Assembly (NCBI GenBank): GCA_964634645.1
Contig: CAZWKI010000002.1
Span: forward strand, 266 to 47,986
DNA from: an uncultured Gammaproteobacteria bacterium
Lineage (GTDB): Bacteria > Patescibacteriota > Patescibacteriia > UBA1558 > S5-K13
Reading direction: 5' to 3'
DNA: 47,721 bases
The first letter of the stretch is position 1. Each line of letters begins with the position of its first letter. This document shows, piece by piece, positions 287 to 40,809 of this stretch. The translations under genes and the position numbers were made by a program. A model generated the notes under the pieces. It had not been told where the DNA came from, did not search any database, and was given only the letters and a program-made list of their open reading frames with translations.

Positions 287-541
287 GGGCGTGTAGCTCA
301 GTTGGTTAGAGCGCAACACTGACCCGCCTCCCGAAGTACAAACACAAATCAATTAAATTGAAAACTTTATTATCTATTGTTGGAGGGCGCATAGCTCAGT
401 TGGTTAGAGCGCAACACTGATAATGTTGAGGTCCCAAGTTCAACTCTTGGTGCGCCCACCAACAGTTGATAATACTGTTGTCCTTCGTACGGAGGGCAGG
501 TAATGTTGAGGTCCCAAGTTCGATCCTTGGCACGCCCACCA
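287..541 (+). tRNA. tRNA-Ile(GAU) interrupted between anticodon positions 35/36 by a 178-nt insert (323-500)
   Basis: Halves 287-322 and 501-541 join into a perfect 77-nt cloverleaf with encoded CCA. The ends of the insert are complementary to each other. Confidence 0.6.
385..461 (+). tRNA. tRNA-Ile(GAU), complete, lying inside the insert of the outer tRNA-Ile
   Basis: Hand-folded cloverleaf: GGGCGCA/TGCGCCC acceptor, anticodon loop CTGATAA, TTCAACT T-loop, CCA end. Confidence 0.9.
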
Positions 542-6876: not shown

Positions 6877-6907
6877 CCTGCCCGCCGAAGCCTTGGCGAA
6901 GGCGGGA
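6877..6907. repeat. GC-rich hairpin element CCTGCCCGCCGAAGCCTTGGCGAAGGCGGGA
   Basis: Member of the recurrent TCCCGCC...GGCGGGA family. Intergenic. Confidence 0.7.
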
Positions 6908-6981
6908 AAATAAAAAGTCGCTCATTGCGACCCTTATCTTAAAACCCTAAAATCTAAAACCTAGACCCTAAACCCTAAACT

Positions 6982-7386
6982 CTAATCTATATATTTCTCA
7001 TACATTTTTCTCTTTGCATCTTCTTGCCTTAACTTTGGAACTTTTACAAGATAGTGCTGAATAGCTGTAATAAGCCAAGATAACATTATTATCCACCACA
7101 AAATAAGTACAAACCTCATCTGGAAATATGGAATTCTTACTTTTCTAAAAAATATCAAAAATAAATTTATTACACCAGTTGTTATAGCAATGTCTGATAT
7201 CTTTATAATAAGAGATTTCTGGTATCTATCAATTTTCTTTCTAAACCAGGATTTTTTTATTAAATACTCTTTTATTATAAGAGAGAAAACTAGTAAAAAA
7301 ATAGAGGTCGAAATAATAACAACAAAAGTGCTATTTTTTAAAATGGGTGGATAAGCGTCAAATAAATATTGAAAATATATGTCCAT
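6982..7386 (-). CDS. hypothetical integral membrane protein
   Basis: 134-aa ORF with several TM segments, abutting the methyltransferase gene. Confidence 0.6.
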   Translation of the reverse strand: MDIYFQYLFDAYPPILKNSTFVVIISTSIFLLVFSLIIKEYLIKKSWFRKKIDRYQKSLIIKISDIAITTGVINLFLIFFRKVRIPYFQMRFVLILWWIIMLSWLITAIQHYLVKVPKLRQEDAKRKMYEKYID

Positions 7387-12858: not shown

Positions 12859-12881
12859 ATTATTTTATTTATTATTTATCT

Positions 12882-12898
12882 ACCTACCGGTAGGCAGG
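12882..12898. repeat. 17-nt palindromic mini-element ACCTACCGGTAGGCAGG
   Basis: Flanked by TTATCT and TTATTT. Overlaps the yidD stop region. Confidence 0.6.
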
Positions 12899-13165
12899 TT
12901 ATTTTAAAGGATCGTAACCACCACGAGACAATGGATTACATTTGATAATTCTCTTTATTGATAAGTATGAACCTTTGAAAATTCCGTATTTATCAATCGC
13001 ATCATATGAATATTTTGAACAATTTGGATAATATCTACAGCAACCAGCCGGATATTTGTAAGAAAACCATCCGGAATCAGGAGAAAGCGTTTTTTGATAT
13101 AATTTTATTAGGTATAGTGCAAATTTTTTCAACCCGTTAAATATTATTTTTTTATATGGAATCAT
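12899..13165 (-). CDS. yidD: membrane protein insertion efficiency factor YidD
   Basis: CRYYPNCSKYSYDAI motif and gene context. Confidence 0.85.
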   Translation of the reverse strand: MIPYKKIIFNGLKKFALYLIKLYQKTLSPDSGWFSYKYPAGCCRYYPNCSKYSYDAIDKYGIFKGSYLSIKRIIKCNPLSRGGYDPLK

Positions 13166-33195: not shown

Positions 33196-33272
33196 TGGTG
33201 GGTCCTATAGGATTCGAACCTATGGCCTTCTCGGTGTAAACGAGACGCTCTAACCAACTGAGCCAAGGACCC
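33196..33272 (-). tRNA. tRNA-Val(UAC)
   Basis: Reverse complement folds as GGGTCCT..., loop TTTACAC, TTCGAAT, CCA. Confidence 0.9.
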
Positions 33273-33310: not shown

Positions 33311-33378
33311 TGGGTCCAACTGTCGTAGTTAAACGGAGATCCCGCATAAGTGAAACGCTTGCGGGAAGCCAAGGACCC
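33311..33378 (-). pseudogene. tRNA-Val 5' fragment with a GC hairpin (33340-33366) inserted after position 12
   Basis: 33367-33378 equals tRNA positions 1-12, and the same upstream spacer is present. CAGTTGG follows after the insert. Confidence 0.7.
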
Positions 33379-33387
33379 AAAATATTT

Positions 33388-33648
33388 TTAATTTATTATT
33401 TTCAATTTACAATTTATCAAATTTTCTTTTTCAATTCTTGATAATTTTTTAATTTGCCTCTCCCTTTTCATTGCATCTATTTTATTTTCAAATTTTTCAT
33501 AATATACAATCTTAACGGGCTTTCTATATTTTGTATATTTTGCACCGCCTCCGGTATTGTGTTTATTTTCTCTTGATTTCAAATCTTTACAATATCCAGT
33601 ATATAATGTTTTGTCACTACAAAGGGCTATATATACATAAAATATCAT
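33388..33648 (-). CDS. GIY-YIG nuclease-domain protein (single domain, 86 aa)
   Basis: FYVYIALCSDKTLYTGYCKDLKSRENKHN ... RERQIKK. Confidence 0.85.
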   Translation of the reverse strand: MIFYVYIALCSDKTLYTGYCKDLKSRENKHNTGGGAKYTKYRKPVKIVYYEKFENKIDAMKRERQIKKLSRIEKENLINCKLKIIN

Positions 33649-33683: not shown

Positions 33684-33705
33684 ATGGTGGACTTGGTGGG
33701 AAACC
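33684..33705 (-). pseudogene. tRNA-Ala(UGC) 3' fragment
   Basis: ATGGTGGACTTGGTGGGA is identical to the 3' end of the complete gene at 34519. It is followed by AACC after a 4-nt gap. Confidence 0.7.
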
Positions 33706-33823
33706 ATTGGAGATATATTATCATGGAATTAAAGCTTTGGCAAGAATTAAAATTAATAAATTGAATAATAAAAAACGATGATATTTCTAAAAACATCATC
33801 GCCTAATTTTGCCATTCCTTGTT

Positions 33824-34027
33824 TTACCATTTCATACGACTCATAAGATCGGCTATAATATCGGCTGGTGTTATACGTTGAAGTCCTTTTTCAGTCATAA
33901 CATAAACTTCTTTGTTTAGACAGCTAATATCATATTTTGTTTCTTTCGGTTGCCCCCGTGTTGAGTCGTCTATTGGTTTTTGCTCTGAATCACCTTGTAA
34001 TTTTTCATGATTACTTTCTGTAACCAT
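33824..34027 (-). CDS. hypothetical 67-aa protein
   Basis: GGAGGAG Shine-Dalgarno sequence. Terminator lies downstream at about 33775-33810. Confidence 0.55.
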   Translation of the reverse strand: MVTESNHEKLQGDSEQKPIDDSTRGQPKETKYDISCLNKEVYVMTEKGLQRITPADIIADLMSRMKW

Positions 34028-34109
34028 ATCTCCTCCTAAAACTTTCTAGACTTAATTATTATTTATCCTATCACTTATCTTAATTTTGTAAATAGACAAA
34101 CAAAAAACA

Positions 34110-34352
34110 CTAAATTAATCTTTTTTTCATAAACGCTATTCCTGAGCCACTCTTCAAATATTTTTCAAATCCTACGGCTTTTAATTTATCTTCAAACACA
34201 GCATAAAAAATTATTTTTAGTGGTTTTATATTGCGCGTTGAACCTACCTTACCAGAATTATGATAGAATATTCTTTTTTTCAAATTCGTAGTAAAACCCT
34301 TATAAATTCTATTGTTATATTTTTTACTTCTTAAAATATAGACGTAATACAT
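34110..34352 (-). CDS. GIY-YIG nuclease-domain protein (single domain, about 80 aa)
   Basis: MYYVYILRSKKYNNRIYKGFTTNLKKRIFYHN. Confidence 0.85.
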   Translation of the reverse strand: MYYVYILRSKKYNNRIYKGFTTNLKKRIFYHNSGKVGSTRNIKPLKIIFYAVFEDKLKAVGFEKYLKSGSGIAFMKKRLI

Positions 34353-34518
34353 AAAAATAAAAATCACTTATAAAATAAGCGACCCTTTGATTAATTTTAA
34401 ACTCCTGTGATTCACTACTTGGGTACACCATCCGAAACTCAAAATTAATATGTATATATAAAATCAGATTGATGTCCTTCGCTAAAGCTGCGGACATCAT
34501 CTTCACTAAAGTGAAGGA

Positions 34519-34595
34519 TGGTGGACTTGGTGGGATTCGAACCCACGACCCTCTGCTTGCAAAGCAGATGCTCTAACCAACTGAGCCACAAGCCC
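34519..34595 (-). tRNA. tRNA-Ala(UGC)
   Basis: G3:U70 pair, loop TTTGCAA, TTCGAAT, CCA. Confidence 0.9.
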
Positions 34596-34669: not shown

Positions 34670-34720
34670 TAACCAACTGCCTGTCCGCCATAGCGTAGCG
34701 AAGGCGGAAGCCACAAGCCC
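34670..34720 (-). pseudogene. tRNA-Ala 5' fragment (positions 1-22) with a 29-nt hairpin insert (34680-34708) after position 12
   Basis: AGCCACAAGCCC and TAACCAACTG match the real gene on either side of CCTGTCCGCCATAGCGTAGCGAAGGCGGA. Confidence 0.75.
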
Positions 34721-36046: not shown

Positions 36047-37078
36047 TTAATCTTCAAGTAAAAACATTCTTGCTGTCTCTTCCGTTATTAACTCATTTTC
36101 ATAAAGTTCTTTGATTGATTGTTTCATTGTAACCATTCCTCTATCTGCGCTTGTTTGCAATACCGTTTTTATTTGTGGGATTTTGTTTTCTCTTATTATA
36201 TTAGAAACAGCTGGTGTATTTATCAAAATTTCTCTTGCCGCAATCATTCCTCCGCCAATCTTTGGCAATAACAATTGAGCAATAACACCCGTTAAAACCA
36301 TTGAAAATTGAAGTCTTACCTGATCTTGCTGATGAGATGGAAAAACGTCAACAATTCTATCTATAACCTGTGCTGCGTCGGGAGTATGAAGTGTTGCCAA
36401 AACCAAATGTCCTGTTTCAGCAAGTGTAAGTGTTGAAGCAATTGTTTCAAGGTCTCTCATCTCTCCAACCATGATAACATTTGGGTCTTGTCTTAAAACA
36501 CGTTTCAAACCTTCTGCGAAACTAAGCATATCAGAACCAAGCTCTCTTTGAACTATAAGACTCTTTGATTTTGGAAATAAATATTCTATTGGATCTTCAA
36601 GTGTAATGATTGAGCATGCCTTGTTGTTATTTATATAATTTATCATCGCGGCAAGACTAGTAGACTTTCCACATCCAGTTGGACCTGTTACCAAAATAAG
36701 TCCCTGCTTTTGCATTATCATTTTTTTTATAATCTCATCTCCTAAACCAAGGCTGTCTAATTCTGGAATATCTTTTATAATTATTCTTGCAACCAAACTT
36801 GCATTATCTTTTTCCCAAAATAAATTTATTCTAAATCTTCCTAACTTGTTTATCTCATAAGAAATATCTAATTCTTTTTTTTCTTGAAATTCTTTTTTCT
36901 GACCAATAGTTAAAATACTATCAATCATTTTTTTATTTTCTGTAGAGGAAATTTCCTCACAGTCTTCTATTCTTACTAATTCTCCGTCAACTCTTATAAT
37001 TGGTTTGTGTCCTACTATAAGATGTAAGTCAGATGCTTTTTGTTCAACAGAAATTTTTAACAGTGAATTTAATTCCAT
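36047..37078 (-). CDS. pilT: twitching-motility/retraction ATPase PilT
   Basis: ASDLHL, Walker A GPTGCGKST, VGEMRD, ATLHT. Confidence 0.9.
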   Translation of the reverse strand: MELNSLLKISVEQKASDLHLIVGHKPIIRVDGELVRIEDCEEISSTENKKMIDSILTIGQKKEFQEKKELDISYEINKLGRFRINLFWEKDNASLVARIIIKDIPELDSLGLGDEIIKKMIMQKQGLILVTGPTGCGKSTSLAAMINYINNNKACSIITLEDPIEYLFPKSKSLIVQRELGSDMLSFAEGLKRVLRQDPNVIMVGEMRDLETIASTLTLAETGHLVLATLHTPDAAQVIDRIVDVFPSHQQDQVRLQFSMVLTGVIAQLLLPKIGGGMIAAREILINTPAVSNIIRENKIPQIKTVLQTSADRGMVTMKQSIKELYENELITEETARMFLLED

Positions 37079-37137
37079 TTTTTTATTTTTAATTATTTTA
37101 ATTATTTAAAAAACCTATTAACAACATACTGAAATCT

Positions 37138-37158
37138 ACCTACCTGCCGGCAGGCAGG
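37138..37158. repeat. 21-nt palindromic mini-element ACCTACCTGCCGGCAGGCAGG flanked by AAATCT/AAATCT
   Basis: Perfect 6-nt direct repeats at 37132-37137 and 37159-37164. Confidence 0.7.
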
Positions 37159-37311
37159 AAATCTGAAAACTAAGCTACTAAGATTATTGTATCATTTTTT
37201 TGTAAAAAAAGTAATCGCATTTTAATTTTAAAAAATAAAAAACATTATTTCTTAAAAAGTCTGTGTTTTACCAAAAATTATTTTAACCTGTTTTTAATTT
37301 CAATAAAAGAC

Positions 37312-37416
37312 TTATCAACATGTTAAATTTTTATTAAAGACATCAAAAACGAATAAAATAAGCGTTCTATAATAGTTATCCACAGAATAAACAACATATG
37401 CACAGGGTTATCCACA
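37312..37416 (+). promoter_or_regulatory. DnaA-box cluster (candidate oriC or DnaA-regulated region)
   Basis: TTATCCACA at 37376-37384 and 37408-37416, TTATCAACA at 37312-37320, ATATGCACA at 37396-37404. All share one orientation. An AT-rich tract follows. Confidence 0.5.
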
Positions 37417-38005
37417 GATATACTTGACTATATGATTATATTATGTTTTAATATATTTACATTATAAATCAATTTTTTATTTATTTTAAGCCAAAAAATA
37501 AGAACTATTAGCACTATTGACCCCGTTGATAAAAAGTGCTATAATTATTATATATAGAAAAATATTGCAAATTATCCTTCTTGTCGAAAAACAAAAACAA
37601 AAACATAAAAAGTTTATTTCCTGCCAAAAAGGTGAGAATAGACAAAATATCGAAAAAGAAAGACAATTTGCATGGAGAATGCTTCTCGCCTAAGAATGAA
37701 ATTGGTAATTATTAAGCTAAAAAGCTTGATAATAGGCCTAAAGTTGGGGAGTGCAACTCCCTAGAAAAAAACCTTCTGGGGAGTTTTTGTTTTGATACTA
37801 TAATTACCAAACATCAAAAAGTCTAAAAATAAAGCGCTTTTAAATAAAAACGTAAATATACAGACATGAAAAAACAACACTTCGGGGCGAGATTATAAAC
37901 TTTAAAATCTAAATATTAGTTTATTTAAGCCAAAATATAACAAAATTTTCATGACCACCATGACTCTTCGCTAAATTTGACAATAACTATTCAAAAATGA
38001 TCAAT

Positions 38006-38021
38006 TGTTCCACGTGGAACA
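38006..38021. promoter_or_regulatory. 16-bp perfect palindrome TGTTCCACGTGGAACA (operator-like)
   Basis: An identical copy lies at 38635-38650. Confidence 0.6.
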
Positions 38022-38095
38022 TTTTAAAAAATTCAAACAAAGCGAATAAAACATTTTAAAAAATAAAAGGATCTATTATATTACAAATAAATCCT

Positions 38096-40630: not shown

Positions 40631-40705
40631 TGGTACCCTCGCTAGGAATTGAACCCAGATTTTATCCTTAGGACGGATCTGTTCTATCCGTTGAACTACG
40701 AGGGC
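40631..40705 (-). tRNA. tRNA-Arg(CCU)
   Basis: Reverse complement folds as a cloverleaf with loop GTCCTAA and TTCAATT. G1:U72 wobble. Confidence 0.8.
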
Positions 40706-40740: not shown

Positions 40741-40809
40741 TGTTCTATAAACAAACTTCTCGTCCCGCCGAAATTTTAATGAAGGCGGGATCCGTTGAAC
40801 TACGAGGGC
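40741..40809 (-). pseudogene. tRNA-Arg(CCU) 5' fragment (positions 1-27) with a 42-nt insert in the D-loop containing hairpin 40763-40790
   Basis: TCCGTTGAACTACGAGGGC and TGTTCTAT match the real gene on either side of the insert. Confidence 0.75.

Follow-up and report, generated by a model that had tools for sequence, protein, structure and literature searches.

The window analysed here, a stretch of 47,721 nucleotides, belongs to the chromosome of a member of the Patescibacteria (CPR) with a GC content of 29%. A phage origin of the window is ruled out by the presence of NusA, YidC, RnpA and type IV pilus genes and of the 3' end of a 16S rRNA gene, and no similarity to phage DNA was found in it. 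Among the ORFs of the 47.7 kb that were scanned with Pfam, none encodes a transposase, RAYT or integrase. When the window was searched against Rfam 15, tRNAs alone reached the gathering score, a value that a 20-nt hairpin could never attain. Scattered in this sequence are three short palindromes that the initial annotation had described as units of 17-21 nt flanked by 6-nt direct repeats. Re-reading of the sequence located all three, with their flanks, exactly as written: copy 1 at 221-253 (AAAATT-ACCTGCTTGCCGGTAGGCAGG-AAAATT), copy 2 at 37132-37164 (AAATCT-ACCTACCTGCCGGCAGGCAGG-AAATCT) and copy 3 at 12876-12904 (TTATCT-ACCTACCGGTAGGCAGG-TTATTT).

All three sites represent aged copies, decayed by mutation, of a single 20-bp palindrome, hereafter PAL20, whose GC-rich, 20-base consensus, CCTGCCTGCCGGCAGGCAGG, consists of two 10-nt arms. 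The size originally given holds as to its ~20-nt scale; the exact unit is 20 nt in all three copies, none of which is assigned a strand. Copy 1 (228-247; CCTGCTTGCCGGTAGGCAGG) shows two C>T changes relative to the consensus and lies in the spacer between the 16S rRNA 3' end (1-22) and a split tRNA-Ile gene. Copy 2 (37139-37158; CCTACCTGCCGGCAGGCAGG) differs by a single G>A change. It borders a 0.94-kb region devoid of ORFs, at a distance of 60 nt upstream of pilT (36047-37078, minus strand), and the two DnaA boxes that are the only perfect ones in the window lie about 220 nt away. The sequence of copy 2 is also present in an independent Logan assembly of SRR8925802. Copy 3 (12879-12898; TCTACCTACCGGTAGGCAGG) carries four GC>AT transitions, including changes on both sides of pair 8-13, which is now A-T. 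It is located inside the rnpA-yidD-yidC operon (minus strand), where it follows the stop codon of yidD without a gap and precedes the start of yidC by 20 nt. All seven differences from the consensus are GC>AT transitions, and all three settings (16S to tRNA-Ile, yidD to yidC, upstream of pilT) are transcribed spacers. The search pattern put forward in the initial annotation matched these three sites of the window alone, with 0.00 matches expected from 100 shuffles, and no further PAL20 copy appeared in the window when three mismatches were allowed.

Sibling hairpins accompany these copies. One of them, HP30 (6877-6906, minus strand; CCCGCCTTCGCCAAGGCTTCGGCGGGCAGG), shares with PAL20 the ends CCYGCC...GGCRGG(CAGG). 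It is identical at 30 of 30 positions to a hairpin in a viral contig of 60% GC (L154:3032), occurs exactly in six viral contigs and is separated by 36 nt from a heptamer array (AAACCCT, 6.3 units by TRF, 6942-6985). Others reside in tRNA sequences. The tRNA-Ile gene (287-541) is split in the anticodon loop by a 177-nt insert (324-500, plus strand) whose ends, CCCGCCTCCCGAAG...CTTCGTACGGAGGGCAGG, are members of this family of hairpins and which holds a complete, diverged tRNA-Ile(GAT) at 385-461. Upstream of the intact tRNA-Ala (34519-34595) is a 5' remnant of this tRNA (34670-34720, minus strand) interrupted between D-arm positions 12 and 13 by a 29-nt GC hairpin (34680-34708, ending GGCGGACAGG); alignment of the two leaves a clean 29-nt gap. 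A tRNA-Val remnant (33311-33378, minus strand), lying between a GIY-YIG ORF and the intact tRNA-Val (33196-33272), is interrupted at the same D-arm position (GGCT^CAGTTGG) by 44 nt that include a hairpin. Finally, a 5' remnant of tRNA-Arg (GCCCTCGTAGTTCAACGGA; 40756-40809, minus strand), upstream of the intact tRNA-Arg(CCT) (40631-40705), continues into the GC hairpin TCCCGCCTTCATTAAAATTTCGGCGGGA (40763-40790). A group I or BHB intron, considered for the tRNA inserts, seems unlikely: the remnants fall short of a full-length tRNA, and the ends of the inserts are not those expected. The GGCAGG terminus said to connect the palindromes to the tRNA inserts is indeed present in the tRNA-Ile insert (GGAGGGCAGG, 491-500) and in the Ala hairpin (minus strand, about 34680-34689). 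The link between the two repeat classes extends to their location: CCGCC-type hairpins fill the D-arm position in this window, PAL20 fills the same position in the tRNA remnants of other genomes, and hybrid forms exist.

Outside this chromosome, a pattern scan of species-representative genomes yielded at least 120 loci. In most of the matches listed, the four free positions of the scan pattern read GCCT, giving the same 20-22-nt palindrome, so that this exact sequence recurs in most of them. Carriers among the matches listed comprise Bacteroidota (isolates as well as metagenome-assembled genomes), many CPR lineages, Planctomycetota, Nitrospirota, Omnitrophota, Bdellovibrionota and others, a taxonomic range that is a sample taken from the at least 120 loci listed. 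PAL20 was also found in 48 viral-contig stretches, some with 3 to 6 copies. Perfect copies occur in the cultured Bacteroidota Winogradskyella echinorum KCTC 22026, Olivibacter oleidegradans CCM 7765, Flavobacterium orientale, Aquiflexum lacus and Longitalea luteola; complete genomes with PAL20 include WWE3 RIFOXYC1_FULL_40_10 (MEWB01000001), Flagellimonas OZ247584 and Nitrospiraceae CP070737, and the names of some carrier contigs point to long-read assembly. Many of the copies elsewhere sit 0-30 nt past stop codons. BLAST detected no exact copy in 50,697 GenBank phages and none in 72,556 plasmids; PAL20 is therefore no universal technical artefact. The presence of the same 20-mer across phyla calls for horizontal transfer that is frequent or for a sequence under strong constraint. 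Within the library searched, the PAL20 sequence, its variants and the peptide LPAGRQ returned nothing relevant, the keywords leading to mitochondrial and Rickettsia analogues alone.

The initial proposal that each palindrome was inserted as a discrete unit of some 20 nt is borne out by sites whose empty state can be read. Alignment of a tRNA remnant to the adjacent intact tRNA leaves a gap of exactly 20 nt at L055, L070, L169, L004, L083 (twice), L045 and L118, and about nine PAL20 insertions in tRNA remnants beside intact copies show no duplication. A complete phage tRNA-Met (L158) holds PAL20 in its variable loop, again without duplication. In a Daviesbacteria-like TrpRS, PAL20 is inserted in frame as the 7-residue segment GLPAGRQ (net +21 nt, no target duplication), which is absent from PDB TrpRS and from the nine nearest homologues. 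PAL20 contains a stop codon in no frame, and in proteins (TrpRS, FtsK and others) it is read as LPAGRQ. Overall, no target duplication was found at about 15 PAL20 sites with an inferable empty state. As for the window itself, the palindrome is absent from the yidD-yidC spacer of five syntenic relatives, whose spacers are too diverged to define the exact empty site (the nearest relatives show only ~80% amino-acid identity), and the flanks of copy 2, whether filled or empty, matched nothing when JGI metagenomes were scanned for them by pattern.

Two small GIY-YIG nuclease ORFs are present in the tRNA region of the window. The first (34110-34352, minus strand; 80 aa; Pfam PF01541, E=3e-14) is of the ..EKYLKSGxG.. 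clade, which in other genomes adjoins PAL20-bearing tRNA remnants; the second (33388-33648, minus strand; 86 aa; PF01541, E=9e-17) lies immediately upstream of the tRNA-Val remnant. For ~170 loci, the ORFs lying no more than 2 kb from a PAL20 copy were clustered, with crude ORF calling in the fetched loci. Small GIY-YIG genes, located in tRNA-associated cassettes and adjoining PAL20 at L070 and L118 for example, were the only recurrent neighbour family; the other clusters corresponded to phage structural genes common to related contigs, and no recurrent transposase or Y1_Tnp family was seen within this distance. PAL20 is enriched beside small GIY-YIG genes, such a gene being near only ~4% of its copies. 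Starting the search from GIY-YIG genes instead, three of four viral loci combined a tRNA remnant with a PAL-like hairpin, two of the three positive contigs being already in the PAL20 scan and only L180 being independent.

The flanking repeats proved to have a different meaning from the one first assigned to them. With the 20-mer boundaries, all three window copies share the geometry N6-A-[20-mer]-N6. Of the repeats reported as two perfect and one matching at 5/6, the former stand, and the third is with these boundaries a perfect 6-mer as well (TTATTT). Because this geometry is found at 0.47% of positions in the intergenic DNA of the window, its occurrence at all three copies is far beyond chance (~1e-7, by arithmetic). 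The abutting 7-mers match at six of seven positions in every case, the seventh base always being unlike (A on the left; G, G and T on the right). Inspection of the surroundings shows heptamer units on the plus strand at each site. Around copy 1 (221-282) a left unit AAAATTA (221-227) is answered on the right by AAAATTG AAAATTG AAAATAA onward (248-282; TRF: 247-282, GAAAATA, period 7, 5.1 units); copy 3 (12865-12905) is preceded by TTATTTA TTATTTA and followed by TTATTTT (TRF: 12865-12879, TTATTTA, period 7, 2.1 units); copy 2 (37132-37172) stands between AAATCTA and AAATCTG AAAACTA. The 6-nt "target-site duplications" of the window are thus units of period-7 tandem arrays enclosing the palindromes. 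Since any insertion inside a heptamer array shows flank identity automatically, the 6-mers are no proven insertion scars. The initial annotation had allowed that flank identity might turn out no commoner than chance once many copies were compared. Among 154 PAL20 copies, abutting 7-mers match at 6/7 or better in 16 (~10%) versus ~0.5% of controls, a ~20-fold enrichment; nearly all of these copies also lie within arrays of at least three units, and period 7 is the most enriched flank periodicity. PAL20 is enriched in heptamer arrays, and ~85-90% of its copies have no flank repeat.

These data bear on the possibility of a nano-MITE, in which a ~20-nt element composed of nothing but terminal inverted repeats is inserted by a transposase at a 6-7-bp staggered cut, thereby duplicating its target, with repeated rounds of insertion and excision leaving 7-bp footprints from which heptamer arrays could build up. 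The geometry common to the three window copies, the perfect abutting 7-8-nt repeats seen at L063, L116, L130 and L150, and an enrichment whose period is specifically 7 all speak for it. However, the ~15 readable sites are free of duplication, the great majority of copies lack flank repeats, the positive cases fall in arrays of related units where identity comes automatically, and the seventh base differs at all three window copies. Moreover, no transposase-carrying element with these ends was seen and the window itself has no transposase. We consider this explanation unlikely and do not retain the flanks as target-site duplications, although for some insertions the in-register heptamers, seen at all three window copies, could stem from a true duplication at a 7-bp staggered cut. 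A role for the palindromes as RNA was also examined. The plus-strand RNA of copy 1 folds into an 8-bp stem with two G.U pairs (-12.6 kcal/mol), that of copy 2 is more stable on the minus strand (-16.4 kcal/mol) than on the plus strand (-12.0 kcal/mol), and the minus-strand hairpin of copy 3 is predicted at -10.7 kcal/mol. Intrinsic (Rho-independent) terminators were discarded, there being neither a terminator-like site nor a U-tract on the transcribed strand at any copy and one weak antisense match, at copy 3. One could still imagine a non-mobile hairpin kept by selection in spacers as a stabiliser, processing signal or attenuator, in the manner of E. coli REP sequences in 3' UTRs. The stability of the predicted hairpins (-10.7 to -16.4 kcal/mol), the transcribed location of all three copies (copy 3 lying within an operon, right after a stop codon), the fact that in copies 1 and 2, though not in copy 3, the non-Watson-Crick positions are G.U on the transcribed strand, the two-sided change of pair 8-13 to A-T in copy 3 and the frequent position of copies elsewhere shortly after stop codons would all be expected on this account. 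Against it, the orientation of G.U versus A.C agrees with gene direction in 12 cases and disagrees in 9 across loci, which is no signal; the copies have no U-tract on the transcribed strand; PAL20 also occurs inside coding sequences and tRNA remnants and is missing from the same spacer in the five relatives; and convergent selection for a stem would not give exact 20-nt identity across phyla. We thus regard selection for an RNA hairpin as improbable.

Still less probable is that PAL20 serves as the palindromic binding site of a conserved dimeric protein, be it an operator, a parS-like site or an origin-associated element. Its perfect dyad is conserved across phyla, as is that of parS, and copy 2 is close to the two DnaA boxes; yet TrpRS, FtsK and other genes carry PAL20 in frame, tRNA remnants contain it too, several copies can stand side by side, transitions are eroding the copies of the window, and no consistent position relative to promoters is apparent. 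Short palindromes can also arise by chance in AT-rich DNA, here as GC-rich hairpins, and most carriers are metagenome-assembled genomes, in which sequencing or assembly errors might be suspected. Chance and artefact are, however, effectively refuted by the null expectation from shuffles, by the recovery of copy 2 in an independent assembly, by the presence of PAL20 in isolate genomes and in contigs named like long-read assemblies, by the divergence of the window copies from one another, by the in-frame TrpRS insertion and by the lack of an exact copy in the 123,000 phage and plasmid records. A sequencing adapter or linker was dismissed for related reasons: PAL20 is not known to match any adapter, the window copies are diverged, the coding insert is in frame and isolates carry the sequence.

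Altogether, we favour, with some confidence, the view that PAL20 is a non-coding, dispersed insertion module, identical in sequence across many phyla and phage contigs and decayed in the genome studied here. It is apparently an inserted DNA element of extremely small size, hitherto undescribed; it is probably selfish, and we infer that it is mobilised in trans. According to this interpretation, PAL20 would enter DNA as a complete unit, leaving the target unduplicated wherever an empty site is readable, and would persist where it does no harm, namely in intergenic and intra-operon spacers, tRNA gene remnants, the variable loop of a tRNA and variable loops of proteins. The window copies would form GC hairpins of 7-8 bp in RNA or DNA. 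As to how it moves, our tentative preference is that a 20-bp hairpin or duplex is captured or pasted at DNA breaks. One source of such breaks might be the small GIY-YIG nucleases of tRNA-associated cassettes, and the geometry of the break, rather than the element, would determine whether a duplication arises. PAL20 and siblings such as HP30 might conceivably represent a hitherto undescribed class of nano mobile DNA, its 20-bp palindrome being much smaller than any transposable unit known, that travels within and between the genomes of many phyla and their phages. A small nuclease that is itself widely transferred would paste it into breaks or into single-stranded DNA. The candidate would be the tRNA-associated GIY-YIG protein of ~80 aa, in a relation analogous to that of RAYT and REP, and the period-7 arrays would be footprints of the same break-and-repair activity.

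If confirmed, PAL20 would be the smallest dispersed insertion element known to us. Identity of sequence across distant phyla and phages would be unusual, implying either very frequent horizontal spread or a strongly constraining partner enzyme. PAL20 alters tRNA sequences as well as essential proteins, TrpRS carrying seven additional residues and FtsK and others having inserts too; the tRNA fragments left over in GIY-YIG cassettes are marked by it, and it is associated with heptamer tandem arrays, whose origin in bacteria is an old question. A practical consequence is that tRNA and gene prediction in the genomes of CPR and phages can be disrupted by such 20-mers. Cultured Bacteroidota carriers make the mechanism directly testable.

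REP sequences measure roughly 20-40 nt. The 20-nt unit falls below them, in keeping with the exceptional smallness claimed for the palindromes in the initial annotation, and we know of no other bacterial repeat element as small. Like REPs and REPINs, PAL20 is a short, GC-rich, near-perfect palindrome with many dispersed copies and no target duplication; it is mostly extragenic, often just past stop codons or in operons, non-coding and presumably mobilised in trans. REPs are species-specific and strictly extragenic, have a conserved GTAG-type head and accompany, in Proteobacteria, a RAYT (Y1 HUH) gene flanked by REPs. PAL20, in contrast, has the same sequence across phyla and phages, is also found inside protein genes and tRNA sequences, and is associated with no RAYT or Y1_Tnp gene in the 47.7-kb window or among its neighbours, where the recurrent gene is a small GIY-YIG. 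With bacterial MITEs (Correia, ERIC, BOX and others) it has in common that it is non-autonomous and built from inverted ends. MITEs are 50-500 bp long, with internal sequence, terminal inverted repeats matching a parent IS and regular target-site duplications, whereas PAL20 is exactly 20 bp and lacks internal sequence; no parent IS is known for it, and testable sites show no duplication. The neighbouring cassettes, rather than PAL20 itself, resemble free-standing GIY-YIG homing endonuclease genes such as T4 SegB in being small ORFs of tRNA clusters with partial tRNA duplications; to our knowledge, no hairpin insertion in a leftover tRNA fragment has been described for seg genes. SegB has been described in a phage tRNA region (PMC13096335). 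Rickettsia palindromic elements are selfish sequences that occur in frame in essential protein genes, in RNA genes and in intergenic DNA (see also PMC10969869). PAL20 behaves similarly in other genomes, though not in this window, being in frame in protein genes and present in RNA genes; the Rickettsia elements are ~100-150 bp long and confined to that genus, whereas PAL20 measures 20 bp and is found in CPR, Bacteroidota and others. GC clusters, hairpin elements and palindromic microsatellites of mitochondria in yeast, other fungi and sponges are GC-rich palindromes in very AT-rich genomes (for example PMC7218506). Unlike PAL20, they are organellar and lineage-specific and reach greater lengths (about 30-60 bp or more); like these mitochondrial elements, PAL20 is found in spacers, in coding regions and near tRNAs, with homing-endonuclease genes in the same genomes.

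The initial annotation described three palindromes of 17-21 nt in the window, and the three sequences and their flanks are present exactly as reported. Its search pattern matches only these sites in the window, where shuffled sequences are expected to give 0.00 matches, and a window search allowing 3 mismatches returned no additional copy. A discrete unit of about 20 nt was borne out, but not the range of lengths: comparison with other genomes sets the unit at 20 nt, a GC-rich palindrome with two 10-nt arms (PAL20). Copy 1 (228-247, CCTGCTTGCCGGTAGGCAGG) lies in the spacer between the 16S end and tRNA-Ile, copy 2 (37139-37158, CCTACCTGCCGGCAGGCAGG) 60 nt upstream of pilT, and copy 3 (12879-12898, TCTACCTACCGGTAGGCAGG) between yidD and yidC, abutting the stop codon of the former and 20 nt upstream of the latter. 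They depart from the consensus, CCTGCCTGCCGGCAGGCAGG, at seven positions, all GC to AT transitions (7/7), which gives them the look of decay in a 29% GC genome. Predicted folding energies range between -10.7 and -16.4 kcal/mol; a terminator tail is absent from the transcribed strand at all three copies, and an Rfam search of the window returned tRNAs only. In an unbiased viral set, the unit is bordered by a purine in 77% of cases, so the functional unit may extend to 22 nt. Directly upstream of copy 1, in the spacer between 16S and tRNA, the segment 217-227 (TGTCTTTCAAAATT) is similar to the boxA antitermination motif of rrn operons, which in Firmicutes is TGTTCTTTGAAAACT. TTCAAAATT also turns up ahead of tRNA-Phe and tRNA-Pro, near positions 612, 642, 790 and 810.

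The 47.7-kb window begins with the 16S rRNA 3' end (GGATCACCTCCTTTCT), has a GC content of 27-36% and carries 11 tRNA genes along with genes for NusA, YidC, YidD, RnpA, ribosomal protein L19, SSB and all the components of a type IV pilus. Judged by YidC homologues, it falls in the Patescibacteria (CPR), the closest relatives sharing only 80-82% amino-acid identity. The segment 31119-39044, which includes copy 2, is identical in an independent Logan assembly (run SRR8925802). No transposase, integrase or RAYT was detected among the window ORFs scanned, and nuclease-like genes are limited to two small GIY-YIG ORFs and one for a UPF0102/NERD protein. About 220 nt separate copy 2 from the perfect DnaA boxes of a 0.94-kb ORF-free region (37160-38095), a candidate replication origin or DnaA-regulated region. 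It holds the window's only two perfect boxes (TTATCCACA; 37376-37384 and 37408-37416), in the same orientation, and one with a single mismatch (37312-37320).

The pattern, with four positions left free, was then scanned across one genome per GTDB species, yielding at least 120 loci; we estimate that about 600 Gb would contain of the order of 1,000 matches by chance alone. Most of the matches listed nevertheless have GCCT at the free positions, giving the identical palindrome, often as 22 nt (A...T). Carriers among these matches include Bacteroidota, both MAGs and isolates (Winogradskyella, Olivibacter, Flagellimonas, Flavobacterium orientale, Longitalea, Flavivirga, Aquiflexum), many CPR lineages (Saccharibacteria, WWE3, Daviesbacteria, Doudnabacteria, Uhrbacteria, Peribacteria, Parcubacteria, Absconditabacterales), and Ignavibacteriota, Planctomycetota, Nitrospirota, Omnitrophota, Bdellovibrionota and Thermodesulfobacteriota. 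Those in high-GC Proteobacteria and Actinobacteria lack GCCT and look like chance. Among IMG/VR viral contigs, 48 stretches also have the exact 20-mer, and some of these have 3-6 copies. No exact match occurs in 50,697 GenBank phages or 72,556 plasmids, which speaks against a universal technical artefact. A literature search for the sequence, its variants and the encoded peptide gave no match.

Evidence that PAL20 inserts as a unit comes from loci (numbered L) in other genomes and viral contigs. At several of them a 5' tRNA fragment lies just upstream of the intact copy of the same tRNA, providing natural filled and empty pairs. Alignment of fragment and intact tRNA leaves a clean 20-nt gap in L055 (GGTAGA^GCAGCGG), L070 (ATGGATA^GTGCATC), L169 (TTGGTA^GAGCGG) and L004 (GGCGGA^ATTGGTA), as well as in L045 and L118, and two such gaps within one fragment in L083. 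In L158 (2239-2330; IMGVR_UViG_3300033148_008720) a complete phage tRNA-Met has PAL20 in its variable loop, where it would form a class-II-like long variable arm; with the 20-mer, ARAGORN still calls it a tRNA (92 nt). Having no stop codon in any frame, PAL20 is also read as LPAGRQ in five real-looking genes. The in-frame loci (L019, L021, L084, L094, L100) encode FtsK, a BNR/sortilin-like exported protein, TrpRS, a membrane glycosyltransferase-like protein and another membrane protein; homologues were compared for TrpRS. The Daviesbacteria-like TrpRS of L084 contains exactly 7 additional residues, GLPAGRQ, between FGE and VF; no PDB TrpRS has them, and neither do the nine closest homologues (77-84% identity). 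The net gain of 21 nt leaves the reading frame intact, in line with a real insertion under selection. The L084 contig (CAZFVS010000055.1) is labelled "uncultured Gammaproteobacteria"; as its TrpRS shares 77-84% identity with proteins of Daviesbacteria (CPR), it is probably mis-binned. Within the lineage of the window, five syntenic relatives have no palindrome in the yidD-yidC spacer, the site of copy 3, but these spacers have diverged too far to give the precise empty site.

The 6-nt flanks had been read as target-site duplications. With 20-mer boundaries, all three window copies share the form N6-A-[PAL20]-N6, the left and right heptamers being AAAATTA and AAAATTG (copy 1), AAATCTA and AAATCTG (copy 2), and TTATTTA and TTATTTT (copy 3). 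Any adjacent 6-mer repeat occurs at about 0.9% of the window's intergenic positions, five times the shuffled level, but this geometry at only 0.47%, so its occurrence at 3/3 copies is not chance. Flank identity is likewise far above controls over all loci: of 154 copies among the matches listed, abutting 7-mers agree at 6/7 positions or better in 16 (10.4%) against 0.4-0.5% of control positions, and at 5/7 or better in 16% against 3%. The most enriched flank periodicity is 7 (and 14); z is about 10 relative to random positions and 3.5 (p = 0.0016) relative to intergenic controls. However, the flanks are units of period-7 tandem arrays that extend beyond two copies. TRF places GAAAATA x5.1 at 247-282, beginning at the last base of copy 1, and TTATTTA x2.1 at 12865-12879, up to and including the first base of copy 3; around copy 2 there are three related heptamer units, and three or more occur in nearly all flank-positive cases elsewhere (L063, L116, L150, L157, L159, L136, L075, L088, L128). 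The window contains 19 period-7 arrays (TRF), mostly around tRNAs, tRNA remnants and GC hairpins. They are its commonest short tandem repeat, and one (6942-6985, AAACCCT x6.3) is the complement of plant-telomere-like TTTAGGG. Any insertion point within a period-7 array yields identical flanks, so array cases cannot show target-site duplication, and none is seen at the approximately 15 sites whose empty state is known (tRNA remnants, tRNA-Met, coding genes). Reading the flanks as duplications is thus not supported; the association of PAL20 with heptamer arrays is real. PAL20 may insert preferentially in such arrays, the arrays may expand beside the hairpin, or both may come from one break-and-repair process.

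A proposed link between the palindromes and the hairpins inserted in tRNAs holds: PAL20 occupies the same place in tRNA remnants of other genomes, and hybrids with the family of HP30, a 30-nt sibling hairpin, exist (L147, L156, L118). In the window, a 29-nt GC hairpin that ends in GGCGGACAGG interrupts a minus-strand tRNA-Ala 5' remnant at D-arm position 12/13, a minus-strand tRNA-Val remnant has a 44-nt hairpin-containing insert at the same D-arm position, and a minus-strand tRNA-Arg remnant is followed by a CCCGCC...GGCGGG hairpin. The tRNA-Pro 3' remnant (961-1032, GGTGGGA...AGTCCCACCACCCCGACCA), 60 nt downstream of intact tRNA-Pro(TGG) (827-903), has a GC hairpin, TCCCGCCGAAGCTTTAGTGAAGGCGGGA, where the T-loop would be. 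A 177-nt insert (324-500) with ends CCCGCC...GGAGGGCAGG interrupts tRNA-Ile(GAT) (287-541), separating anticodon positions 35 and 36, and holds a complete but diverged tRNA-Ile(GAT) at 385-461; the insert has the look of a cassette that breaks up the resident tRNA and supplies its own replacement. The insert ends can pair (CCTCC-CGAAG with CTTCG-TAC-GGAGG), and L022 is built in the same way, with an entire tRNA-Met inside a split tRNA. HP30 itself (6877-6906, minus strand, CCCGCCTTCGCCAAGGCTTCGGCGGGCAGG) is identical at 30/30 positions in a 60% GC viral contig and exact in six viral contigs with unrelated flanks. One 29-kb, 60% GC viral contig (IMGVR_UViG_3300037242_000417; L154/L163/L165) has six PAL20 and two HP30 copies, several inside longer repeats that are found in both orientations.

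By crude ORF calling in the loci listed, the only protein family recurring beside PAL20 in unrelated loci is a GIY-YIG nuclease of about 80 aa, typically in the order tRNA remnant with hairpin, GIY-YIG ORF, intact tRNA (L055, L070, L083, L118, L169, L144); about 95% of the palindrome copies in these loci are not near such a gene. The window's two small GIY-YIG ORFs lie beside the tRNA-Ala and tRNA-Val remnants. A reverse search of viral contigs, with the GIY-YIG clade rather than the palindrome as query, found a tRNA remnant with a PAL-like hairpin in 3/4 loci, one of them new (L180) and two on contigs already returned by the palindrome scan. On the minus strand, within 33685-34595, the 3' end of tRNA-Ala (TCCCACCAAGTCCACCA) is repeated at 33685-33701, about 810 nt downstream of the intact gene; the repeats bracket a GIY-YIG ORF (34110-34352) and a small unknown ORF, an arrangement reminiscent of an integrated cassette between att-site repeats.

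The evidence best supports PAL20 as a dispersed and probably selfish insertion palindrome whose window copies are decayed relics in transcribed spacers. As to mechanism, we favor capture of a 20-bp hairpin or duplex at DNA breaks, which we infer. GIY-YIG cleavage of tRNA genes could be one source of breaks and would explain the hairpins in leftover tRNA fragments; break geometry would decide whether a short duplication is present. The earlier proposal of insertion with target-site duplications, cast as the work of a transposase, keeps some probability given the heptamer association, but offers no unambiguous positive case. An effect at the RNA level, such as stabilization or processing, is possible, although the strand test across loci (12 vs 9) gave no signal.

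Among known systems, PAL20 is like REP sequences in size, form and absence of target duplication, and, like the Rickettsia palindromic elements, it invades both protein and RNA genes. What sets it apart from both is a length of only 20 bp and a sequence that is identical across phyla.
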